Positions 34,853-51,695 of a stretch of 64,000 nt of DNA are shown here, piece after piece. The notes below the pieces were generated by a model. It did not search any database. It saw only the letters and a list, made by a program, of their open reading frames with translations, and was not told the DNA's origin. Every line of letters begins with the position of its first letter. Positions within the stretch are counted from its first letter, which is position 1. The translations under genes and the position numbers were made by a program. Origin of the DNA: a bacterium BMS3Abin11 (GTDB lineage: Bacteria; Pseudomonadota; Gammaproteobacteria; BMS3Bbin11); assembly GCA_002897635.1 (NCBI GenBank), contig BDTD01000009.1:54754-118753 (forward strand), read 5' to 3'.

Positions 34853-34938
34853 GCCGGAGTGGTGGAATTGGTAGACACGCGAGATTCAAAATTTCGTGGG
34901 CTTTGCTCGTGTCGGTTCGAGTCCGACCTTCGGTACCA
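34853..34938 (+). tRNA. tRNA-Leu (anticodon CAA)
   Basis: GCCGGAGTGGTGGAATTGGTAGACAC... D-arm, anticodon loop TTCAAAA, long variable arm, T-arm GGTTCGAGTCC, acceptor ending CGGTACCA. 86 nt. The AT-rich accessory block begins just downstream. Confidence 0.85.
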
Positions 34939-35054: not shown

Positions 35055-36770
35055 TTAACGCTGAGAAATGGCATTTTTTTTACTTCGCCAACCGCCAACC
35101 AGTTCTGACAGTAGCATAAATCCAGCAATAATGAAGATTAGTAATACTGGATAACCAGGAGACATTGCCCGACCTATCTCAGAGTATGATGTAATCTGGA
35201 TCAGCGTCACGATTATCATGTTGGAGAGTATGGCAGCTAAAGCAGACAGCCCCAGGACGGTAGCAGGTCGTACTTTACACTTGATCAGCTCGTATATACC
35301 TCTGGCAGGAATCAAAAAAATGAACAATATGAAGAACCAGGGTACGAGGTGTCTATAAAAGTTATTCCATATATTACGAATAGTTCTTTTCTTCTTTTCA
35401 CTATTTTTCTTATAAAATTCAGGCCTTAAGGCCTGGATACTTCCTCGATCTACTTCGATTTTTTCATTTGTAACAGTTTCGAATAATTGAAATGTCCGGA
35501 ACCATCCTGCACTGAACTGACCTTCTTTTTTATAGTCAAATTTGTCGAAGGTAACTAGCCGTTTCAGATTATCATAGAATGTCGGAATGAGAAGTTTGGT
35601 AAATTCCTTATGCCAGGGGGGTACAAATGGCGACAGCAAACTTGCACATTCTAGCCTGCCTGAATTACAGGCTTTTTTTAGCTCACCACCCATTCTCTCG
35701 TAAAACTCGAATGTCTGTTTGATCGTTTTTGGGTTTTTTGACTGACTGAAATTGTAATATCCCGCTCGTTGTACGGCATCTCGAAATGCCCAGATAAAAA
35801 ATGCAGCAGGAATATCCACTCGATGGCCCTGCCACTGTTTACCTAAGTTTCCCTCGAGGTACGGTCTCAACTCCTGAAAGGCAGGACTCACTGCATAGGC
35901 TTTTATCCTGGCTTCCTTTACCACCGGATAGAAACGCCTCCAGCTATTTGTCTTGATTCGCAGTAGCCCACTATATGCTGATTCGAATTCGCTAGAATGA
36001 ATCTCCAGTGGCGTAAAGACGCCATAGCTCTGCCAGTTTAAAGTTGCCAGAATCAGCGTAGAGAACCAAACCAGAATCACTGGCGTAACATAGAGAACTG
36101 CTATCCTCCTCAGCTTGTAGCCCCTGTTGACCCAGACGCCATACAGGGTAAAAAATAGCAATACAAGTAAGGATGGAATGATCCATATCGCCTCTTCCCG
36201 AGTATGCCAGAATGCTGATAATGAGAAACCGAGTAATAATGACCAGAGGAATGGTTTACCTTTGCCAGAGAGTGTTCTTGCATATAGCCCGTATGCAGAA
36301 GCAATGACCAATATTGTTAGTGCCGGGTAGATACCTAACCGAAATACACGATCTACAATGATGGTAAAAGGATTAAATAGCAGGAATAAGTAGATTACAA
36401 ATAACCACCCCTTGTGTTTTACATCTGGTGATATTGCAATGATAAATACCACGCAGGCAAGCGCATAGAGTAGCTGCTGTGCGGTCAGTAATGGTATACC
36501 GGCAATATTGCTCATTGCTATCCATATTGGATAGAAAACCCCCTTCATCAGGGTATATTGGCTATACTGGTCGTATCGTCCTAACCAGTCTCCGTTTAGG
36601 ATGTAACTGGCAAGTGTAATAAAGTGGTTATCATCATGTGGTGCAAATACTGCTCTTAGAAGATATACGTCTGAGAGCCAGATTTTGTAGTAGGTGGTGA
36701 TAATGATAGCAATCGCCAGATACACCATACTACGAGAAATTGAAAAGTATTTTTCAGAGGATTGTTCCAT
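35055..36770 (-). CDS. polytopic membrane protein, possible GT-C-type glycosyltransferase
   Basis: 571 aa. About 8 N-terminal TM helices with an early loop motif APHDDNHF, a 220-aa soluble domain, then 3 C-terminal TMs. AT-rich. Last gene of the minus-strand trio. Confidence 0.45.
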   Translation of the reverse strand: MEQSSEKYFSISRSMVYLAIAIIITTYYKIWLSDVYLLRAVFAPHDDNHFITLASYILNGDWLGRYDQYSQYTLMKGVFYPIWIAMSNIAGIPLLTAQQLLYALACVVFIIAISPDVKHKGWLFVIYLFLLFNPFTIIVDRVFRLGIYPALTILVIASAYGLYARTLSGKGKPFLWSLLLGFSLSAFWHTREEAIWIIPSLLVLLFFTLYGVWVNRGYKLRRIAVLYVTPVILVWFSTLILATLNWQSYGVFTPLEIHSSEFESAYSGLLRIKTNSWRRFYPVVKEARIKAYAVSPAFQELRPYLEGNLGKQWQGHRVDIPAAFFIWAFRDAVQRAGYYNFSQSKNPKTIKQTFEFYERMGGELKKACNSGRLECASLLSPFVPPWHKEFTKLLIPTFYDNLKRLVTFDKFDYKKEGQFSAGWFRTFQLFETVTNEKIEVDRGSIQALRPEFYKKNSEKKKRTIRNIWNNFYRHLVPWFFILFIFLIPARGIYELIKCKVRPATVLGLSALAAILSNMIIVTLIQITSYSEIGRAMSPGYPVLLIFIIAGFMLLSELVGGWRSKKNAISQR

Positions 36771-39088: not shown

Positions 39089-40903
39089 ATGTCTTTAAAT
39101 AACAAGTACGTCACCTTCCTGCTTTCTGTTTCGATATTTATCTTATTCTTTAGCTTTTTTTTTATTACATCTAATATTCTACCTCAGGGTGCAGGCCCAG
39201 ACTGGAAATCGAATACCGATGTAACAAAATTTATCTATGAAAATGGCAGGCTGGCAGTTCTCCCTGATGACGAAAAGGATTTGCACTTCACGGTTTATGG
39301 TGGCACGCGGGCACTAAGACCGCCCCTTTCCTATATCGTGTCCGCAGTTGCTGCAAAAGCTCTTGCATTCACCAATCTTGATTCATATGTGCTGTTTCGC
39401 AAAGGATCCGCACTTTTATGTGCCTTAGCCCTGGCTCTAACATTTTATGCTCTGAGTATTTACTTTAACAGTTATGCAATTGGGATTTTGGGCTCCACAA
39501 TTATAGGTCTAATGCCGCAATTCACTTTCATTGCTTCATATAATAATGATGACAGCGGTGCAATTTTCTCTGCCACACTTATGATTGCCGTGCTGGTTCG
39601 TATATACCGTTATGGGGCATCAAATACCAATGCAATTTTACTCGGCCTTGCTGGCGGACTAGTCGTGCTTTCAAAGATGACTGCATGGCTATTAATGCCA
39701 TCTGTCGTTCTATTTCTAATCATTTTCTTCCGGTCTCCTGTGCGCTCACTACTGCGTTACGCCTCCATTGCAGGAGTGGTCTTTATTCTAGCTGGCGGCT
39801 GGTGGTTTGCGTTTAACACCTATCACTATGGGATCGATGATCCACTGCTGAAAAAAATTACCACCACAGTAATAGAGCAGCACAGGCGTCTGCCACCGGG
39901 TTCAGGTGTAGGATTTGCCGCACAGGGAATAGGCTTTTATGAATTATTTGCTGAAAACTATAAAAATTTCCTCGGCGAAACGGCTAAGGCAACCATCGGT
40001 AATCTGGACTGGCTAAAGCTAAAAGTTGGCCCGCTACAGTACACTGTCTATCTGGGTATTTTCTTTTTTGCCCTGTTCTATTATTTTTTCAGCCTATCGG
40101 CATATCTGATAAAACGATTCAGGAATGTAACCGTAAATGATGAACATACCAGGCAGTTAATATTCGAATCACTGCTGCTGTTGATGATAGTTTTTCAGAT
40201 AACCATGTATACCTGGACCAATATCAATAATGATATACAGATACAGGGAAAATACATCATCCCTATTTTTCTTGCCATCCTGCTTTTATTCTTTTCCGGA
40301 ATATATCGATTACCGGGAGTGACCGCCGTTTCAATCAGGAAATTGTCTGAATCGGGTTTCCCTGTAAACGCTTCAAATACTGGCAGGTTTGGTGTATTTT
40401 TGGCAAGCCTGATGTTTATTGTCTATGTACACTGGGATGCATGGCAGAATTATATCATCCCATTTTATCAACCACCTGCGTATGATATAAAGCTGGGAGA
40501 ATTTCATTCTATTCCACTAAATTTAGATCTGAACCAGCGCGCAGATAATCTGGATATACGAGAAACCGGTGGAGGTATTGAGTATATTTCCACAGGTAAA
40601 GACCCAAAAGTCATCTTTAAAAAGGATATCTGCCAGAAGATTTCAACAACATCGATGTTATATCTTGAGTTTAATGCAAAGAATGCAGACACCCTCCAGT
40701 TCTTCATCGATGAAGGTGGAGGTTTTTCGGCGAATATTTCATCCACTGCTACTTATAAACAGGGAGACAACACCCTTTTGCTCCCAATTTCAGCTAACAA
40801 GTGTCAATATCTGCGTTTCGATCCATTTATCGAAAATGGGACATTCATCCTGAAGAAATTTAAGATTGCACCAATGACGATTGTCCCAAGACGAAAGAAT
40901 TAA
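39089..40903 (+). CDS. GT-C glycosyltransferase of the ArnT/PMT (GT39/GT83) type
   Basis: 604 aa. First-loop DDEKDLHF and RPPLSY motifs, about 12 TM helices, a C-terminal about 150-aa soluble domain. Divergent from the GT2-deacetylase operon. Contains a T9 tract near the 5' end. Confidence 0.7.
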   Translation: MSLNNKYVTFLLSVSIFILFFSFFFITSNILPQGAGPDWKSNTDVTKFIYENGRLAVLPDDEKDLHFTVYGGTRALRPPLSYIVSAVAAKALAFTNLDSYVLFRKGSALLCALALALTFYALSIYFNSYAIGILGSTIIGLMPQFTFIASYNNDDSGAIFSATLMIAVLVRIYRYGASNTNAILLGLAGGLVVLSKMTAWLLMPSVVLFLIIFFRSPVRSLLRYASIAGVVFILAGGWWFAFNTYHYGIDDPLLKKITTTVIEQHRRLPPGSGVGFAAQGIGFYELFAENYKNFLGETAKATIGNLDWLKLKVGPLQYTVYLGIFFFALFYYFFSLSAYLIKRFRNVTVNDEHTRQLIFESLLLLMIVFQITMYTWTNINNDIQIQGKYIIPIFLAILLLFFSGIYRLPGVTAVSIRKLSESGFPVNASNTGRFGVFLASLMFIVYVHWDAWQNYIIPFYQPPAYDIKLGEFHSIPLNLDLNQRADNLDIRETGGGIEYISTGKDPKVIFKKDICQKISTTSMLYLEFNAKNADTLQFFIDEGGGFSANISSTATYKQGDNTLLLPISANKCQYLRFDPFIENGTFILKKFKIAPMTIVPRRKN

Positions 40904-40924: not shown

Positions 40925-41398
40925 CTACTTTCTTTTATCCAGGAAGAATGTCTTTAACAAGCTTGAACATTCCTGCTGTAATACACCGGTCGTCACGGTG
41001 ACACGATGATTCAAATGTGGAGAATTCAATAAATTAAACACACTACCTGCCGATCCCGTGCGTGGATCAGGTGTTGCGATAACGATACGCCTGATTCTTG
41101 CTTGCACAATGGCACCTGCACACATTGGGCAAGGTTCAAGCGTGACATAGAGGGTGGTATCAGGTAAACGATAATTATTGAGCTGTTTTGCAGCATCACG
41201 TAAAGCGAGTATTTCTGCATGGGCAGTAGGGTCATCTGCTGATATTGGCTGGTTCCATCCTTGTCCGATGCATTGATTGTCAGAATTAACCAGCACCGCA
41301 CCAACCGGTACTTCTTCGTGCGCTGCTGCAATTTTTGCCAGCTCCCAGGCTTTGTTCATCCAGTCTAGGTCGATATCGTCACTCTCTTCTGGAAACAT
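40925..41398 (-). CDS. tadA: tRNA-specific adenosine deaminase
   Basis: HAEILALR...PCPMCAGA CDA zinc motifs. Starts at the internal MFPEESDD Met of the longer ORF. Confidence 0.9.
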   Translation of the reverse strand: MFPEESDDIDLDWMNKAWELAKIAAAHEEVPVGAVLVNSDNQCIGQGWNQPISADDPTAHAEILALRDAAKQLNNYRLPDTTLYVTLEPCPMCAGAIVQARIRRIVIATPDPRTGSAGSVFNLLNSPHLNHRVTVTTGVLQQECSSLLKTFFLDKRK

Positions 41399-41399
41399 C

Positions 41400-41745
41400 T
41401 TACTCCCACTCGAGATTATAAATAGCCCGACAAAGTCCATTACTAGCGCGGGTTTCCCAGTGGCCGATGGTGCGCGCCAGATGGGTAAGCTCGGCGCTGG
41501 TGGGCGCCTTGACCCAGCGGAACCGGGTGCTTCCATCGGAATGGTCAGTGTACACACCATCGAGGAACAACATATGGAAATGGATATTCAGATTGAGTGC
41601 CGAGCCAAACCGCTGGATGAGGGTGACCGCCCCGGTCCGGGCTGTCTTTTTTGTCAAGCCCGCTTTCTTGATCAGATGGGTGGCAATCACACGGTAGACA
41701 ATGCCGAGCACCCCGCCCGTGACGGCCGGGTGGATTACCAGGGTG
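41400..41745 (-). pseudogene. IS91-family (HUH Y2 rolling-circle) transposase internal fragment
   Basis: ...VYRVIATHLIKKAGLTKKTARTGAVTLIQRFGSALNLNIHFHMLFLDGVY... matches my memory of the IS91-family catalytic region. It is truncated at both ends. High G+C begins here. Confidence 0.55.
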
Positions 41746-42682
41746 CCCGACTGTTGCTGAGGCACAGATCTACCAGGTCGTCGAGGCGCGCGGTCCCGGC
41801 ACACATCACGGTATCCGCGCCACCCCAGTAAATCTTTACGCCGCCGTCGTCATCCGCGACTGCACCGCAGGTAAAAACGACGTTGTGTACATAGCCCGTG
41901 ATCTCCCAGGGATCCTCTGGGGCTAGCACCCATTCATCCGAAACGCCGATAATCTTCGCCGGATTGGCAAGATCGTGCAGCGCCACGCCGAGACGATAGA
42001 CTGCCCCGTCCATGGTCTCGAATACCCCGTGGTAGATGCTGAGCCAGCCGCGTTCGGTGCGGATCGGTGTCGCACCGGGACCGATCTTCGACTCGTCCCA
42101 GTGATACGGCACCGGCTTCATCACCACCTCGGAATCGCCCCAGTGCACCAGGTCCGGCGACCATGACAGCCACACGGACCAGGGGCTGATCTCCGAATGC
42201 GGTCGGTCCAGGCGGGCGTAGCGGCCGTTGAACCGCTGCGGAAAGATAACGACATTGCGCATGTCCGCCTGGGTGATCAACGCCACGCGCTCAATGGATC
42301 GGAAATCACAGGTCCTGGCCAGCCCGATACGCACACCGTGGCGCGAATAGGCGCTGTAGGTAATCAGGTATTCCCCGTCTATACACGAGATTCTGGGGTC
42401 CTCCACCCCAAAAGCCTCGTATTCACCAAAGGCGCCATCTGTCGACGGCACCAGGAACGGCTCCGGGCCGACCGTAAATTTGAAGCCGTCCTCACTCTCG
42501 GCGATGCCGATGATCGACCGGCCGCTACGCAGGTGGGATCGAAACAGCATGATGGTGCGGCCGTCGTATTGTGTCATGCCGGCGTTGTGCACGGTCTCCA
42601 CCGGGTAGGGGATGTCGTCCCGCGTAAGGATCGGGTTGTCCGGACAGCGTTCGATGATTGGCGGTGGTTTAGCTGCGGTCAT
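41735..42682 (-). CDS. GH130 family glycoside hydrolase / beta-mannoside phosphorylase-like
   Basis: Five-bladed beta-propeller GH130/DUF377 signature (NPIL...DIPY, FNAG, EDPRI, YSAY, PWE). The start ATG is preceded by GGAGG. Overlaps the upstream gene's stop by 14 nt. Confidence 0.75.
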   Translation of the reverse strand: MTAAKPPPIIERCPDNPILTRDDIPYPVETVHNAGMTQYDGRTIMLFRSHLRSGRSIIGIAESEDGFKFTVGPEPFLVPSTDGAFGEYEAFGVEDPRISCIDGEYLITYSAYSRHGVRIGLARTCDFRSIERVALITQADMRNVVIFPQRFNGRYARLDRPHSEISPWSVWLSWSPDLVHWGDSEVVMKPVPYHWDESKIGPGATPIRTERGWLSIYHGVFETMDGAVYRLGVALHDLANPAKIIGVSDEWVLAPEDPWEITGYVHNVVFTCGAVADDDGGVKIYWGGADTVMCAGTARLDDLVDLCLSNSRAPW

Positions 42683-44015
42683 AGTCATCCTCCAGCCGGA
42701 TAATATCGTCTTCCCCGAAATAATCTCCCATCTGCACCTCGACCAGAACCAGCGGGATATCACCGGGGTTCGTGATCCTGTGCACTGCACCCTTTGGGAC
42801 ATCCACGGACTGCCCCGGCCTGAGCGGGATTTCCTGATCCCCCACGGTGACCAGCGCTTCGCCACTGACCACGGTCCAGTGCTCGGCCCGGCGCCGGTGC
42901 TTCTGCAGGCTCAGCCGCTGGCCCGGTTGGACGATGATCTCCTTGATTTTGTGATCATCCCGCTCGAGCAGGTTTTCATAGTGTCCCCACGGCCGATAGT
43001 TCTCCCGCTGGTCGAGGATGCTCTGGTAGACCTCCAGGTAGGCGCGTGCCATGTGCCGGCTGGTAAAGCGCTGTTCCACCTCGTCCCGGCAGGCGCGCCG
43101 GTCGAGCGAATCAATCCTGTCCACCGCCTGTACCGCGGCGTTCACATCGGCCACGATGAATCCCGTCTGGCCGTCGCGAATGAGTTCCGGCATTGAGCCC
43201 CGCCCATAGGCGATCACCGGCGTGCCACAGGCCATGGACTCGACCACGCTCAACCCGAACGGTTCGTCGAAGTGAATCAGGTGCAACAACCCCAGCGCAC
43301 CGCCCAGAAGTTCCTGTCTCTTCTCCGGCCCGACGGAGCCAACATATTCCACCATGGATCCATCGATGTGCGGCTCGACCTGTTCCTGGAAGTATGCCTC
43401 GTCCTGCACGATCCCGGCAATCACCAGCCGTAGTCCGGCCCTGCGCGCCACCTCAATGGCATCGTGGACACCCTTATGGTGGTGGATACGCCCGAAGAAC
43501 AACAGGTAGTCTCCCGCGTCTTCGCGGTAGGGGAATTGTGCGAGATCGATGCCATGATGGATGGTTGCGGCGTAATCGAGTTCACAGCTCCTGTCGGCCT
43601 CACTAATGGCCACATAATAGGTGCTGTCATTGTACTTTTTATAAACGGGCAAAATCGACGGCGAAGAGAATCCATGGATCGTCGTGACCAGCGGTGTAGG
43701 GGTAAAACCGCTGTAACTGAGCGGCAGAAAATCGAACTGGTTGTGGATGAGGTCGAACTCATCCGCCCGCCTGAACACCTCGGCGATATGCAGGCATTCC
43801 CAGACCTTGGGATCAATCGAGGGGTCTTCTGAGTAAGGGCGTTCACAAACCCAGGAAAGTTTACCACGGGTAATGGAATCCCCGGTCGCAAACAGTGTCA
43901 CATCGACACCCATCGCCACCAGCTGTTCTGTCAGGAGGCTGACCACATTTTCCCACGGCCCGTAATGGCGTGGGGGTGTGCGCCAGGACAAGGGACTCAA
44001 CATCGCAATCTTCAT
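42669..44015 (-). CDS. GT4 glycosyltransferase fused to a C-terminal mannose-6-phosphate-isomerase-type cupin
   Basis: GT-B/GT4 core (E..GG motif region, EPFGLSVVESMACGTPVIA) followed by the cupin HRRRAEHWTVVSGEALVTVGDQEIPLRPGQSVDVPKGAVHRITN. Confidence 0.7.
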   Translation of the reverse strand: MKIAMLSPLSWRTPPRHYGPWENVVSLLTEQLVAMGVDVTLFATGDSITRGKLSWVCERPYSEDPSIDPKVWECLHIAEVFRRADEFDLIHNQFDFLPLSYSGFTPTPLVTTIHGFSSPSILPVYKKYNDSTYYVAISEADRSCELDYAATIHHGIDLAQFPYREDAGDYLLFFGRIHHHKGVHDAIEVARRAGLRLVIAGIVQDEAYFQEQVEPHIDGSMVEYVGSVGPEKRQELLGGALGLLHLIHFDEPFGLSVVESMACGTPVIAYGRGSMPELIRDGQTGFIVADVNAAVQAVDRIDSLDRRACRDEVEQRFTSRHMARAYLEVYQSILDQRENYRPWGHYENLLERDDHKIKEIIVQPGQRLSLQKHRRRAEHWTVVSGEALVTVGDQEIPLRPGQSVDVPKGAVHRITNPGDIPLVLVEVQMGDYFGEDDIIRLEDDYDRS

Positions 44016-44327
44016 AAAAGAGGCCTGCGTGAACACCTGCGCGCGATCCACGCGCCAGCGGGGTGTTGTTATGATCAGGAACAAATCTGATAGCACAGTA
44101 ACACGATTTGCCTGACGGGCTACAATAACAAAACACCTGACAAAACGAAACCACCGCCCATTCAGATAAGGCTTGGACAGGGTGGAAATTTTACCCTTGC
44201 TGCCGCTAAAGATAGTATAGTGTGTTGAAACAAAAATAGTCTAATCTATTGCCAATTCAACTATAATCCGATATAGCCTGCCACGCAGACCGAACCAGGC
44301 GCAGAGGGCTTGTACCACGTGGAAGCA

Positions 44328-45812
44328 ATGAAAATGGAAAGCAGACCTGACCCCACCACTCCACTCGCGCGGCGCAAGTCGATCGTGATGAAGGCGAAGA
44401 TCAGTCGCGTCATTACCCGGCCGTATCTGCCGTCCGGTGAAGAACGCATCCAAAAAGTTATCCAGCGGGTGTTGAGCCTGGACGAGAATGAGGCGGATAC
44501 GGTGCTGGAAACCCTCTTGCAGGATTTTTCCCACCGCCACCGCTACTTCAGGGAGACCCTGGAGCAAAATTTTGCACGGGTAGCTGACTTTTTGCCGGAT
44601 ATCGATCAGGTATCGAAGCAACGGCGGCTTCTGATCGGCGCGTACTTTACCGCGGAATACTCAGTGGAGGCGGCGGCGTTGTTCAATCCCTCAATCGTTC
44701 AGGTTCCGAACCAGGAGGCGGATCCTGAAGGCACCTGCCGGTTTGTTATGAGCTTCCGTGCCACTGGTGAAGGCCACATCTCCTCCATCGAGTTTCGCAG
44801 CGGGGTTATCGATACCAACAACGATATCTACTTCGATGGCCTGAGCGACTACGTAGCAACCCCGGAAATCCACCCCAACCCAAGCTATGACCGGCACCTG
44901 TTTCGGCTGAAACTCCAGGAGATGGGGGCGAATAATGCGGTAACGCACCAGCTTCTAAACAGGCTGCCGGACAATTTCACCTTCAACGATCTGCAGGGAA
45001 AGATCGCCGAACTCCAGAACAACGGCCAGTTTCCGCCACAGGAGCAGACGGATGCCATTGACATGGCAATGTGGCTGGCGCAATCCAATTACCAGATTTT
45101 GTTTCGCAAGGAACACGCAATTTCCGAGCGGGTGATCTTTCCCGTGTCGGAATCCGAGCGCAAGGGGATCGAGGATGCCCGCTTTGTACGTTTCGTCGAC
45201 GACGACGGCACGGCGGTCTACTACGCCACCTATACCGCGTACAACGGAGAGACGATCCTGCCGCAACTCATCGAGACCCGCGATTTCCTCTCCTTCAAGC
45301 ACATTACGCTGAATGGAGCCCAGGTACAGGGCAAGGGCATGGCCCTGTTCCCGAGAAAGATTGGGGGCAACTACGTGATGCTGTCGCGCCAGGATGGTGA
45401 GAACAATACCATCATGTTCTCGGACAACCTGCACTTCTGGCAGCAGGCCCAGATTCTTCAGGAGCCTGAGTTCCCCTATGAATTCATACAGATGGGCAAC
45501 AGCGGCTCACCCATCGAGATGCCCGAAGGCTGGCTGGTCGTGACCCACGGGGTGGGTCCGATGCGGACCTACAGCCTCGGCATCGAGTTGCTCGACCTGG
45601 ACGACCCGACCCGGATCATCAACCGGATTGAGGAGCCGATCCTGGTGCCGAATGCGTATGAGCGGGAGGGGTATGTCCCGAACGTGGTTTACAGTTGTGG
45701 CGCACTCATCCACCAGGACGAATTGATCATCCCCTACGCCTCGGGCGACCAGCGCTGCGGCATAGCAACCCTGCAGCTACCACAGCTGATGGCCAGGCTG
45801 ACAGCACGGTAG
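44328..45812 (+). CDS. GH130-like beta-propeller protein with an uncharacterised about 250-aa N-terminal extension
   Basis: C-terminal about 240 aa shows GH130/DUF377-like blocks (GIEDARFVRFVDDDG...YYATYTAYNG, GWLVVTHGVG, PNVVYSCGA). I recognise no family for the N-terminal half. The ATG at 44328 follows a GGAAG RBS; the listed ORF starts at an upstream TTG. Confidence 0.6.
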   Translation: MKMESRPDPTTPLARRKSIVMKAKISRVITRPYLPSGEERIQKVIQRVLSLDENEADTVLETLLQDFSHRHRYFRETLEQNFARVADFLPDIDQVSKQRRLLIGAYFTAEYSVEAAALFNPSIVQVPNQEADPEGTCRFVMSFRATGEGHISSIEFRSGVIDTNNDIYFDGLSDYVATPEIHPNPSYDRHLFRLKLQEMGANNAVTHQLLNRLPDNFTFNDLQGKIAELQNNGQFPPQEQTDAIDMAMWLAQSNYQILFRKEHAISERVIFPVSESERKGIEDARFVRFVDDDGTAVYYATYTAYNGETILPQLIETRDFLSFKHITLNGAQVQGKGMALFPRKIGGNYVMLSRQDGENNTIMFSDNLHFWQQAQILQEPEFPYEFIQMGNSGSPIEMPEGWLVVTHGVGPMRTYSLGIELLDLDDPTRIINRIEEPILVPNAYEREGYVPNVVYSCGALIHQDELIIPYASGDQRCGIATLQLPQLMARLTAR

Positions 45813-45828
45813 GGAATGGTAGTCGTCG

Positions 45829-48198
45829 CTATTCCGACGATACTTTCTGAACATCAAGCCGGGTGGGCTCTTCCTCCGGTGTAACCCGATCCCAGCTGCG
45901 GTGGTTATAGACGGCGAGCAGCGCCATGAGCCAGCAAAGCGTGGACTCTGCGCCCTGATTTTCATTCGCGCCCTGCGCTTCCAGCCCGTCCCGGCAGCCG
46001 CCGGTCGCATAATCGCAGAGCGGAACCCCCAGATCGTTCTCGCCTTGGTACCAGTTGAGACAACGGTAGGCATAGGTAATCCATTCCTCATCCCGCGTGC
46101 AGTTGAATGCCTCGATACAGGCGTCCACCATCGCGGCCGCCTCGATGGGTTGTTGATCGAATCGCGCTTTTTCGCCGCCTCTGGGAAACCAGCCGTGATT
46201 GCCGATAGCGACAAAGTGCCGGCCCTTCTCATCGGTCTGAACCTGCTTCAACCAGTCGAGAGAGCGCAACCCCATCTCCAGCATCTCGCTGTCGGGAAGC
46301 CACTGCCCAGACAGCAGTAAAGCCTGTGGCAACCGGGCATTGTCGTAGGTCAGGATGTTGTCACACCAGGGCCAGTCTTCGCTGGCGCACCCCAAGGGCA
46401 CTTCCTGCGGGGCGAAATCCCTGAACCGCTGCATCAGTCGTTCCGAGAGTATCTTGCGCATCATTTTCGCGCGGCTGTCCCCGCTGTAGCGGCCCAGATA
46501 GGCATGAATACCGATAATGGCGAAGGCAATCGCCCGTGGGTGGGTGAAATGTTCGGTGGCGTCCAGTGCACGATGGAACAGGTCGACCGAAAAACCCACC
46601 TGCCCCTTATCCCGCCCCAATGCCACTGCGACGCCCAGCCCCCACACCGCACGACCGTGGGAGTCCTCCGAACCTGTTCCCTCTAGCCAGTAGCGATCAT
46701 AGGACATAAAGTTGCGGAAGCGGCCGGTCTGGTCATTGAAGGCGTGACCCAGAAAACTCAGATAAGTGGCGGCAAGGCCGCTTTGTGCTGAATCCAGAGG
46801 CTGGAGGTCCTGTAGCGTGACCGCGACGATCAACGCGCGGGCATTATCGTCCACGCAATAGCCGTGTGTCCGGTCTGCAACCGTGTACTTGGCGTGTTGC
46901 AACATACCCGTGTCATCGGTCATCCGGCGTAAATAGTCCAGCTTGATCTCCGGTAGCCGTTGCTGGCGTAGTCCGAGGGTCTCCAGCCCGCGCCTGGGTA
47001 CGTTCTTCCTCAATCGCTGTCGTTTGGCTTCTGCAAAGGTGTCGAGATAGCGGCGGCCTACATCACTCCAGACCATTTTGCGACCGTATTGATAGGCCCT
47101 CTCCTGGATGGCGCGGCACTCATCGGGATGATCCAGGAGGTCGATGACTTCCCGCGCCAGAGCGGCCTGATCCCGGAATGGAACCAGCCTGCCCCGATCA
47201 TCAGCGAGCAACTCCTGAGCGTGCCAGAAGGGTGTGGATATCACCGCTTTGCCCATCCCAAGCGCATAGGCAAGCGTGCCGGAAATAATCTGCGCCTCAT
47301 TCAGGTACGGAGTGACATAAATATCTGCCACACCGATAAACTCCAGCAGATCTTCGTCGGCAACGAAACGATCATGAAAAACAATGTGCTCCGAAACGCC
47401 GAGTTCTTTTGCACGCCTGTGAAGGCTGTTTCTGTAATCCTCCCCATCTTCCATCTTAAGGTGCGGATGGGTGGCGCCTACCACCATATAGATGACCTGC
47501 GGGTGGGCCTTCACGATCTCCGGCAAGGCATCTATGACCACCTCAATGCCCTTGCCCGGCGAAAGCAGGCCGAAGGTCAGGATGACTTTCTTTCCGGATA
47601 CGCCGAACTTGTCCTTGTAGGCATCGGATTTGACAAACGGCACGTCAGGGATGCCATGATGTATAAGGACAATCTTCTCCTCCGGCACCTGGTAGATATC
47701 GCGCAGGAATTCGACTGAGCGTTCACTCATCACCACCAGCCGGTCTGAGAACTCGGCAAGTTGCATCATGATGTGCCGGTCCTGAAGGTTCGGATCCTTC
47801 AGGATTGTGTGCAGAGTCGTCACAACCGGCATATTGAGATTACGCAGCAGCTCGATAATAAAGCTGCCCCGCTTGCCACCAAAAATACCGTATTCATGCT
47901 GGAGACAGATCACATCCACCTGGTTAAGGTTGCATAAGTCGGCCGCCAGGCTGTATTCGTTCAGTTGAGACTGGTTGATCTCGAAGCGCACCTGAGACGG
48001 GTAGGAATAGCCTGTTGGCCGGTCGTTCATTGCGACCGCCCAACAGGCTTTGTCCGGTGCATTCAGCGCGATGGATTCAAGCAGGTGGGTGGTGAACGTG
48101 GCGATACCACACTGCCGGGGGAGGTGGTTGCCGATGAGGACGATCGACTTGAGAGCCTCCCATTCTGGTCTTGAGCCTGTCGTGCCGAAGTTATCCAT
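45829..48198 (-). CDS. 789-aa fusion: N-terminal GT4 glycosyltransferase plus C-terminal about 400-aa alpha/alpha-barrel glycoside-hydrolase-like domain
   Basis: N-terminal half has GT4 features (GG-loop, FGLLSPGKGIEV, E..G..V.ST). The C-terminal half (HGYCVDDNARAL..., ENQGAEST) tentatively resembles (alpha/alpha)6 hydrolases. Confidence 0.6.
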   Translation of the reverse strand: MDNFGTTGSRPEWEALKSIVLIGNHLPRQCGIATFTTHLLESIALNAPDKACWAVAMNDRPTGYSYPSQVRFEINQSQLNEYSLAADLCNLNQVDVICLQHEYGIFGGKRGSFIIELLRNLNMPVVTTLHTILKDPNLQDRHIMMQLAEFSDRLVVMSERSVEFLRDIYQVPEEKIVLIHHGIPDVPFVKSDAYKDKFGVSGKKVILTFGLLSPGKGIEVVIDALPEIVKAHPQVIYMVVGATHPHLKMEDGEDYRNSLHRRAKELGVSEHIVFHDRFVADEDLLEFIGVADIYVTPYLNEAQIISGTLAYALGMGKAVISTPFWHAQELLADDRGRLVPFRDQAALAREVIDLLDHPDECRAIQERAYQYGRKMVWSDVGRRYLDTFAEAKRQRLRKNVPRRGLETLGLRQQRLPEIKLDYLRRMTDDTGMLQHAKYTVADRTHGYCVDDNARALIVAVTLQDLQPLDSAQSGLAATYLSFLGHAFNDQTGRFRNFMSYDRYWLEGTGSEDSHGRAVWGLGVAVALGRDKGQVGFSVDLFHRALDATEHFTHPRAIAFAIIGIHAYLGRYSGDSRAKMMRKILSERLMQRFRDFAPQEVPLGCASEDWPWCDNILTYDNARLPQALLLSGQWLPDSEMLEMGLRSLDWLKQVQTDEKGRHFVAIGNHGWFPRGGEKARFDQQPIEAAAMVDACIEAFNCTRDEEWITYAYRCLNWYQGENDLGVPLCDYATGGCRDGLEAQGANENQGAESTLCWLMALLAVYNHRSWDRVTPEEEPTRLDVQKVSSE

Positions 48199-48529
48199 AG
48201 ACGCCTTTTTTTTGCCGGTATTGTTGTGCCGGTGGGTGAATGATTCGATGTTGATACTCCAGTAGTCGAATGCCGCCAGATTGAGAAGCGTACTGCCACT
48301 CGTCAGCTGCCCCTATCTTACATGAATTCAAGGTGATTGGTCGGCTGGACGCCAGGCACCGCAAAACCAGACCACACGTTTTTAAGGTACGTGATATTTT
48401 TAACGCCGATGGGCGGTTACACACCTGCCTTTTTCACGTACGGTATTTTTTTAGAGACACCCTCATCTCGTTGGCGATGTGCTCGAAAGCCTCATACAAT
48501 AAGTTAAAAGCCCCCTACTACAACTTACA

Positions 48530-51090: not shown

Positions 51091-51372
51091 ATGAAATTGA
51101 GTGAATCGGTAAAACCCATCAGCTACTTGAAAAGCCACACCGCCGAGGTTCTGCGGGACGTCAGCGAGGGGCAACGTACCATGGTGATCACACAACACGG
51201 CGAAGCCAGGGCAGTGCTCCAGGACATTGCCAGTTATGAACAAACCCAGGAATCTCTGGCGCTGCTCAAGATGCTGGCCCAAAGTTCCAAAAGTATTCAG
51301 GAAGGCCGCAGCAAACCCATCAAAAAAGCCTTTGCAGATGTTCGCAAACATATTCGGGAAATCACTGAGTGA
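51091..51372 (+). CDS. type II antitoxin, Phd/YefM family
   Basis: 93 aa with a YefM/Phd-like N-terminus (MKLSESVKPISYLKSHTAEVLRDV...TQHGEARAVL). Overlaps the downstream toxin gene by 4 nt. Confidence 0.8.
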   Translation: MKLSESVKPISYLKSHTAEVLRDVSEGQRTMVITQHGEARAVLQDIASYEQTQESLALLKMLAQSSKSIQEGRSKPIKKAFADVRKHIREITE

Positions 51373-51695
51373 AACGCTATCGTGTCCGGCTTACCGAGGA
51401 TGCAGAGCAGGATCTGATCGACATCTACCACTACATTGCGTTCCATGACTCCGTGGAGAACGCAGATTATGTACTGGATCAGCTGGAATCACTCTGCTCG
51501 CGGCTTACCGATCTGTCCGAGCGGGGCCACGTTCCGCCCGAGCTGGTTCGAATCGGAGTAACAAACTATAAAGAGGTCAACTTCAAGCCGTATCGTGTTA
51601 TCTACGAAGTGATCCGGCAGGATGTTTTCATTCATTGCATCCTGGATGGCCGCAGGGATATGCCATCATTACTCGAGCGACGCCTGATTCGTTAG
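51369..51695 (+). CDS. type II toxin, RelE/ParE family
   Basis: 108 aa, ParE-like fold signature (RVRLTEDAEQDL..., RELRIGNYRVIY-type motif YRVIYEV). Confidence 0.75.
   Translation: MKRYRVRLTEDAEQDLIDIYHYIAFHDSVENADYVLDQLESLCSRLTDLSERGHVPPELVRIGVTNYKEVNFKPYRVIYEVIRQDVFIHCILDGRRDMPSLLERRLIR

Follow-up and report, generated by a model that had tools for sequence, protein, structure and literature searches.

What does a family GT4 glycosyltransferase do when it is fused to a second, enzyme-like domain that matches no Pfam family? The question is raised by a 789-residue protein encoded in a 64,000-nucleotide stretch of contig BDTD01000009.1 (positions 54,754 to 118,753) of the gammaproteobacterium BMS3Abin11; the whole stretch is referred to here as the window. 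An earlier reading of the letters alone (the original prediction) had described the protein as a GT4 half followed by a putative (alpha/alpha)-barrel hydrolase, and had regarded such a fusion as unusual. The answer favoured here, which is given somewhat less than an even chance, is that of a soluble cytoplasmic two-module protein, a mannosyltransferase joined to a mannoside-processing glycosidase or transglycosylase, that would act with beta-mannoside phosphorylases in a self-contained, mobile mannoside module. The domain identities, the fold, the pattern of conservation, the linkage of the genes, their mobility and the lack of export signals are shown by the analysis; which sugars serve as donor and acceptor, that the barrel is catalytic, and what the physiological role is are inferred. 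The coordinates of all features are collected in Table 1.

The open reading frame (ORF) was found as predicted, running from ATG to stop without interruption; its strand, which had been left unstated, is minus. An identical protein is already held by NCBI under the name 'glycosyltransferase', and three independent assemblies carry it with the same neighbour genes. Relatives at 83-99% identity occur in Acidiferrobacteraceae, Thiolapillus, Thiogranum and hydrothermal-vent metagenomes.

The N-terminal GT4 half was confirmed by Pfam, with Glyco_transf_4 matched over residues 91-183 and Glycos_transf_1 over residues 195-370, above the gathering scores (PF00534, 67.9 bits against a cut-off of 26.4; PF13692, 65.9 against 27; PF13439, 36.0 against 28.5). 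The best sequence matches in the PDB were the GDP-mannose-dependent PimA and PimB, and MshA was also matched. An AlphaFold2 model of the full-length protein showed alternating beta-alpha units over residues 18-330, consistent with the two Rossmann domains of the GT-B fold, and the predicted local distance difference test score (pLDDT) was mostly 75-98 in the C-terminal Rossmann half. In PimA and related GT4 enzymes the nucleotide-sugar donor is bound by an EX7E motif and an Arg/Lys pair (GR...KG). Q303 and Y311 of the fusion were aligned with E274 and E282 of PimA, the two glutamates of EX7E, and alignment to a second GT4 encoded in the window placed L211 where the canonical arginine of GR...KG stands; K216 and H130 are retained. 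The L211, Q303 and Y311 substitutions (residues 207-217 and 300-314) are conserved family-wide. Both canonical donor motifs are complete in the second GT4 and are not in the fusion.

Residues 395-789 matched no family in Pfam, and likewise none in NCBIfam. A search with residues 396-789 returned thousands of homologues, 45 of which were aligned with the query; the resulting 46-member alignment was used for modelling. The AlphaFold2 model (mean pLDDT 85.9, predicted template modelling score (pTM) 0.87) consists of eleven long helices with short beta-hairpins between them, and the helices form the concentric inner and outer rings of an (alpha/alpha)6 barrel. The predicted fold was therefore right in kind, and the possibility that this half would be a TPR-like helical repeat and not a barrel was checked and is contradicted by the model. 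The nearest relatives, however, were not those that had been proposed: GH15, GH63, GH37, GH100 and GDE_C were all more distant than the nearest barrel relatives. Values in the barrel comparison were 21-23 for GH15, 20.8 for debranching enzyme, 20.2 for GH100 invertase and 18.5-19.5 for GH63, and GH37 was absent from the best 60 matches.

The sole match of the C-terminal half in a PDB sequence search was 7TEM, the structure of YPO2471 from Yersinia pestis, which is a structural-genomics entry titled as a 'putative exported protein' and is the structure closest to the barrel. Sequence and structural homology both place the barrel in a YPO2471/7TEM-like family. YPO2471 is a stand-alone, apparently exported protein without a GT4 domain, unlike the fusion, and is about 17-19% identical to it; the F-D-Q-Q-P motif of the barrel family is not conserved in YPO2471. 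The DD pair (D450-D451), D737, N745, N747 and E751 are common to the two, with IDDVARA in 7TEM for the DD pair and NKNSGAEST for ENQGAEST. A literature search found no paper on YPO2471.

Whether the barrel is an enzyme was judged from its conserved residues. The two motifs quoted in the original prediction, HGYCVDDNARAL and ENQGAEST, are present and are among the most conserved columns of the family, N747 and E751 being at least 95% conserved. Strictly conserved are H435, H445, G446, Y447, D450, D451, N452, R454, S510, D512, H514, R516, W609, W611, Y618, D681, Q682, Q683, P684, D737, G738, N745, N747, G749, A750 and E751. In the model, the conserved residues map to the N-terminal ends of helices 1, 3, 5, 7, 9 and 11 or to positions immediately preceding them; in domain numbering, invariant motifs stand at the starts of the helices at 54, 116, 159, 289 and 355 and just before the helix at 227. 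The invariant or near-invariant polar residues (D450, D451, R454, S510, R516, D681, Q682, Q683, D737, N747 and E751) are found at the N-terminal ends of helices 1, 3, 9 and 11 and in the hairpin before helix 11. The model suggests that alternate helices form the inner ring, their N-terminal ends making an active-site funnel; with this assignment, the barrel has the conserved polar and acidic pocket of (alpha/alpha)6 carbohydrate-active enzymes. D450/D451, D681, D737 and E751 are the candidate catalytic carboxylates.

A non-catalytic barrel would serve in carbohydrate binding or regulation, holding the acceptor or the growing chain for the GT4 domain or docking the GH130 partner. This is regarded as distinctly unlikely. 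Invariant carboxylates, amides and tryptophans (D450, D451, D681, Q682, Q683, D737, N747, E751, W609 and W611) crowd the mouth of the barrel. They are kept in different phyla although overall identity is 37-55%, as is usual for an active site. The barrel is also found, rarely, in fusions to unrelated enzymes, placed N-terminal to a GFO/IDH/MocA oxidoreductase (P0136) or to an alpha/beta-hydrolase (BD-FAE) domain (P0142), and this suggests that its activity is autonomous.

If the barrel is an enzyme, it could be an epimerase or isomerase of the AGE type, converting the reducing-end sugar of a mannoside for GH130 as in the mannan pathway of Bacteroides and Ruminococcus. Membership of the AGE superfamily (cellobiose 2-epimerase, mannose isomerase, YihS) was rejected on sequence and profile grounds, since Pfam GlcNAc_2-epim gave no match for any of the 46 members at E<=10 and a comparison of the family profile by hhalign with a genuine AGE protein, from a Rhizobium plasmid, gave a probability of 0.1. 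Catalysis by AGE enzymes requires a pair of histidines that stand in the C-terminal two thirds of the protein; one histidine of the catalytic type, H248 of YihS, is named in the title of its PDB entry. The only conserved histidines of the barrel are H435, H445 and H514, all in its N-terminal third, and the sequence alignment has none after residue 514 of 789, so that the catalytic pair is not conserved. The gene for that genuine AGE isomerase moreover stands separately beside a fusion-GH130 gene pair on the Rhizobium plasmid, which argues that the barrel does not supply the activity. The AGE explanation is accordingly held to be improbable, and the carboxylate-rich pocket fits a glycosidase or transglycosylase better than an AGE-type enzyme.

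Weak, sub-threshold matches to GH76 (PF03663) were obtained for five of the 46 members (best E 0.018), the window protein having none. GH76 alpha-mannanases use adjacent aspartates. The GH76 alpha-1,6-mannanases are secreted or surface enzymes that degrade fungal mannan, and the barrel matches are far below threshold. A parallel is provided by the mycobacterial (alpha/alpha)6 endo-alpha-1,4-mannosidase MmpH, in which catalysis relies on D47 or D50, close to the first helix, and on E262, far along the chain (PMC9883506). Hydrolase activity of the barrel is plausible, and the barrel probably founds a new family of carbohydrate-active enzymes.

The expectation that the fusion would be unusual was overturned by its frequency, this arrangement of domains being the dominant one within a very large family. 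When 1.84 billion cluster representatives (50% identity clusters) were searched exhaustively with HMMER, the barrel domain was found in 4683 clusters at E<=0.001 and in 1036 at E<=1e-30. Among the 150 best-scoring representatives, 89 also had a GT4 of this type, which always preceded the barrel (N-terminal in 89/89), and for up to 36 of the 150 the barrel may stand alone or the sequence may be a fragment. At least 594 loci were confirmed when a single genome was scanned for each species; those listed come from Gamma-, Alpha- and Deltaproteobacteria, Planctomycetota, Acidobacteriota, Bacteroidota, Spirochaetota, Chloroflexota, Firmicutes, Nitrospinota, Fibrobacterota and Asgard archaea. No biochemical characterisation of the fusion family was found in a literature search.

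The genes that accompany the fusion point to mannose, and this context, which the original prediction did not include, is the most informative evidence. In the window they form a module of four: the fusion, a long GH130, a GT4-cupin fusion and a short GH130. The cupin domain is C-terminal in the second GT4 (PF01050, E 2.6e-40). Linkage was scored in 64 related loci for which 8 kb or more of flanking sequence was available. The GT4 was fused to the barrel in 62 of these and a GH130 gene lay within 9 kb of the fusion gene in 56. The long GH130 type was present in 39 loci, being the most constant partner, and the short type in 35; a second GT4 occurred in 46 (13 of these bearing the cupin), and 28 loci had the full set of three partners. 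Plasmid pILYOP02 of Ilyobacter polytropus carries just the four module genes, with recombinases and an IS256 transposase as neighbours. On plasmids of Sphingobium, Devosia, Rhizobium and Novosphingobium the module is reduced to a pair of genes, those of the fusion and the long GH130, whose ORFs overlap in three of the four; that the alphaproteobacterial partner is of the long type, N-terminal extension included, was verified by tblastn. Mannose-1-phosphate guanylyltransferase/isomerase, class I mannose-6-phosphate isomerase and phosphomannomutase genes are neighbours of the plasmid pair, and one plasmid holds every step to GDP-mannose next to the module. Two kinds of mannose-6-phosphate isomerase recur with it, the fused cupin in the window and the class I gene on the plasmids. 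The recurrent isomerases and the complete adjacent route to GDP-mannose indicate, by association, that mannose is the substrate of the pathway.

On two alphaproteobacterial plasmids (L089, 3746-12999; L090, 506-10464) the pair is near groES/groEL, a CsbD-family general-stress protein and HWE/PAS sensor kinases, neighbours that hint at stress-linked expression of the pair.

Hydrophobic segments and signal-like N-termini are absent from all four module proteins (highest Kyte-Doolittle mean over 19 residues, 1.56). Glycoside phosphorylases are cytoplasmic (PMC7660257), and the module is accordingly taken to work inside the cell. These observations bear on the possibility that the fusion is an ordinary envelope-polysaccharide glycosyltransferase, for lipopolysaccharide, exopolysaccharide or capsule. 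The database names say as much ('glycosyltransferase involved in cell wall biosynthesis', 'GDP-mannose-dependent alpha-(1-...'), and GT4 enzymes are common in O-antigen and exopolysaccharide clusters. The module proteins, however, lack membrane segments and signal peptides, and genes for a flippase, a polymerase, a chain-length regulator, an initiating transferase or export are missing from the conserved neighbourhood, the neighbours being only phosphorylases and mannose-activation genes. Among the alternatives weighed here, the envelope role is given the lowest probability.

Both window GH130s are nearer to the phosphorylases than to the hydrolases of their family. Mannoside phosphorylases are recognised by a proton-donor Asp and by an Arg and a His that bind phosphate, and they have no catalytic base (PMC7660257). 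The Asp, Arg and His were sought in alignments with Uhgb_MP, Lin0857 and 1,2-beta-oligomannan phosphorylase; the aligned structures were 4UDG, 9FJ8 and 5B0P. The proton-donor Asp and equivalents of R168, H231 and D304 are present in both proteins. Positions 103/150 are E/K in the long GH130 and E/R in the short one; in the long GH130 a Glu precedes the catalytic Asp, and the Lys at the +1 position completes the beta-1,2 signature. By the published rule (PMC7660257), the long GH130 is predicted to be a beta-1,2-mannoside phosphorylase and the short GH130 to be of the beta-1,3 class. The best PDB matches of the long GH130 were the Thermoanaerobacter beta-1,2-mannoside phosphorylases 9fj8 (E 2.3e-33) and 7fip (E 1.9e-29), and that of the short GH130 was TM1225; NCBIfam equivalog cut-offs were reached by neither. 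The GH130 domain of the long protein occupies residues about 267-484. Residues 1-260 (window 44334-45140) form an extension that is conserved across phyla, from Fusobacteria to Alphaproteobacteria, and has no Pfam match; the N-terminal 269 residues had no PDB match even at E<=10. The extension may be a docking or regulatory domain.

In the mechanism proposed, the GT4 domain would transfer an alpha-linked sugar to an acceptor, most probably mannose from GDP-mannose. The barrel, as a glycosidase or transglycosylase of the new YPO2471-like family, would process the same oligo- or polysaccharide by trimming, release or primer generation. The GH130 phosphorylases would extend the glycan from alpha-mannose-1-phosphate or degrade it to this product, and the cupin domain, as a mannose-6-phosphate isomerase, would feed mannose-6-phosphate into the pathway. 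The net outcome would be an intracellular mannose-based oligosaccharide that is made and recycled, as a reserve or a stress protectant. The idea that the fusion builds and then trims a glycan, already put forward in the original prediction, is still a reasonable one, with a precedent in the ManT/MmpH pair of mycobacteria (PMC9883506).

Several points weigh against this proposal. GT4 enzymes retain configuration and hence form alpha-linkages from GDP-alpha-mannose, whereas GH130 enzymes act on beta-mannosides, so that the two cannot simply make and break the same bond. From this mismatch it follows that the product would be of mixed linkage, or that the GT4 step would make a primer or a cap. 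Without the usual Arg and both EX7E glutamates, the donor of the GT4 domain may not be an ordinary nucleotide sugar, or the role of the domain may be modified. The closest structure, 7TEM, has no known function, and no member of the barrel family has been assayed. Finally, the full-length model (pTM 0.55) gives low confidence to the linker, residues 400-409, and fixes no interface; there is no structural sign of substrate channelling between GT4 and barrel, because the two domains are not confidently packed in it.

The same stereochemistry bears on a further alternative, a chain-length-controlled or cyclising mannan synthase resembling cyclic beta-1,2-glucan synthase, in which the glycosyltransferase elongates, the (alpha/alpha)6 domain transglycosylates or cyclises and the phosphorylase trims. 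A retaining GT4 would give alpha-linkages and not the beta-linkages of GH130, and the barrel is less similar to the cyclisation domain than to AGE, GH76 and MmpH. No cyclic mannans are known in bacteria. Such a synthase is considered slightly less probable than an AGE-type barrel.

For the favoured reading of a mannosyltransferase joined to a mannoside-processing enzyme, the closest functional precedent is the methylmannose polysaccharide system of mycobacteria. There ManT, a GT4, and MmpH act together, and MmpH is essential for biogenesis of the intracellular mannan, being needed for synthesis because it supplies primers (PMC9883506). ManT and MmpH are separate proteins, whereas the window has one fused protein; the mycobacterial cluster has methyltransferases and no GH130, whereas the window module has GH130s and no methyltransferases. 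No homology between MmpH and the barrel was detected at the sequence level.

The partners are paralleled in Thermoanaerobacter sp. X-514. In Teth514_1785-1796, two adjacent GH130 beta-1,2-mannoside phosphorylases with differing chain-length preferences adjoin a GT4 alpha-mannosyltransferase and a mannose-1-phosphate guanylyltransferase (PMC4264767). The cluster has two GH130s and a GT4 like the module, and the long GH130 is most similar to its two phosphorylases. It also contains an ABC importer and a GH5 and is read as serving the salvage of imported oligomannan, whereas the window module has no transporter.

A bolder reading was drawn from Leishmania, in which mannogen is a cytoplasmic beta-1,2-mannan reserve handled by GT108 mannosyltransferase/phosphorylases with the GH130 fold; it is built from GDP-mannose or mannose-1-phosphate and degraded by phosphorolysis (PMC10913872, PMC12814180). 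The mannogen cycle has no GT4 or (alpha/alpha)6 component, and its likeness to the module comes from context only. The fusion and the long GH130 could be the core of an unrecognised mobile pathway for a cytoplasmic beta-1,2-mannose oligomer or polymer, a prokaryotic counterpart of mannogen present in many bacteria and some Asgard archaea. The barrel would then found a new family of glycoside hydrolases or transglycosylases with the function of making or releasing primers, and the GT4 domain would perhaps use mannose-1-phosphate or another unusual donor. No mannogen-like polymer is known in bacteria. This pathway is considered unlikely, although less so than a non-catalytic barrel.

The module moves horizontally, by plasmids and by genomic islands. 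In the window it occupies a GC-rich island, in which the GC content at third codon positions is 0.69-0.75, against 0.40-0.50 in eight housekeeping genes of the window. A contig from a high-GC gammaproteobacterial metagenome-assembled genome (L007) matches the window solely over 41733-48227, with a nucleotide identity of 79-90% there and unrelated flanks. An assembly chimera can be dismissed, since three independent assemblies share the junctions of the island. At the island borders no integrase and no adjacent tRNA gene were found, the single tRNA gene being at 34853, and direct and inverted repeats were only of chance size. The rest of the window is ordinary chromosome, with genes for MutS, DnaB, RadA, SecD, PGI, SHMT, GuaA, GuaB, Der and HisRS.

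Table 1. Positions of the fusion gene, its domains and motifs, and the associated features, in window coordinates.
Feature	Position	Strand	Remark
GT4-(alpha/alpha)6 fusion ORF, 789 aa + stop	45829..48198	(-)	ORF list and translation
GT4 (GT-B) glycosyltransferase domain, residues 1-395	47014..48198	(-)	Pfam matches above cut-off
C-terminal domain, YPO2471/7TEM-like family, no Pfam family	45883..46953	(-)	
Motif HGYCVDDNARAL, residues 445-456	46831..46866	(-)	Invariant D450-D451 at start of first barrel helix
Motif ENQGAEST, residues 746-753	45940..45963	(-)	Start of last barrel helix
A8 run (T8 on + strand), the 'T10 tract' of the original prediction	48206..48213	(-)	Ends 7 nt before ATG
Long GH130, 492 aa	44334..45812	(+)	Converges on fusion gene, 16-nt gap
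Second GT4, 448 aa, with type II mannose-6-phosphate isomerase cupin domain	42669..44015	(-)	Canonical GR...KG and EX7E
Short GH130, 315 aa	41735..42682	(-)	Start overlaps stop of GT4-cupin ORF by 14 nt
GC-rich island with four-gene module	41733..48342	.	57.4% GC against 44-45% in flanks

The start of the fusion gene is supported by its nearest relatives, L005 and L007, in which the start codon and the first residues (MDNFGTTG) are kept and the 14 nt before the ATG are likewise conserved. The homopolymer tract upstream had been put at ten nucleotides and proved to be eight; at the same position both relatives have A6. The tract seems to belong to a conserved ribosome-binding region (AAAAAAGGCGTCT-ATG) and is in no way special. 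A role as a phase-variation switch was rejected, given its length of 8 nt (6 nt in the nearest relatives) and its place outside the coding region, 5' of the GG of the likely ribosome-binding site. In a scan for promoters and terminators, no signal rose above the shuffled expectation.

Two further observations were made on the fusion gene. A 17-nt inverted repeat, 94% complementary and with a 7-nt loop, lies within its 5' coding region (window 48009-48049, codons about 50-63). In one lineage (L001, 286-2605; also L002 and L003) the gene is split into ORFs of 293 and 466 residues, the break falling inside the second Rossmann half of the GT4 domain; it was seen in three independent assemblies and could be a frameshift or a genuine split.

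To the left of the island, the tadA ORF (40925-41560, minus strand) has 211 residues from its first ATG and is called as 157 residues in other assemblies. The GC content climbs sharply within the extra 5' part, and for this reason the left island boundary is probably a short way upstream of where tadA truly starts. Immediately left of the island, a stretch of low GC content (40-42%) holds two large ORFs, one for a 571-residue protein without a Pfam match (35055-36770, minus strand) and one for a 604-residue protein with only a sub-threshold match to the membrane mannosyltransferase family PMT_2 (39089-40903, plus strand; E 8e-5). On the other side, overlapping ORFs for a PhdYeFM antitoxin (93 residues) and a ParE toxin (108 residues) were found at 51091-51695 on the plus strand, between the GuaA/GuaB genes and the gene for a xylose-isomerase-like TIM-barrel protein that borders the island.

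Thousands of database entries read just 'glycosyltransferase family 4 protein', and this name masks a conserved, enzyme-like second domain that has no Pfam family. The near-obligate linkage to GH130, the mannose-activation genes, the spread over more than 10 phyla and the carriage on plasmids and islands suggest a common, self-sufficient cytoplasmic mannoside pathway that has so far gone undescribed. GH130 routes to beta-mannosides are also of practical interest, these linkages being hard to make chemically (PMC4264767). Characterising the family would probably define a new CAZy family and give the 7TEM structure a function, and it might reveal a new storage or stress carbohydrate of bacteria.

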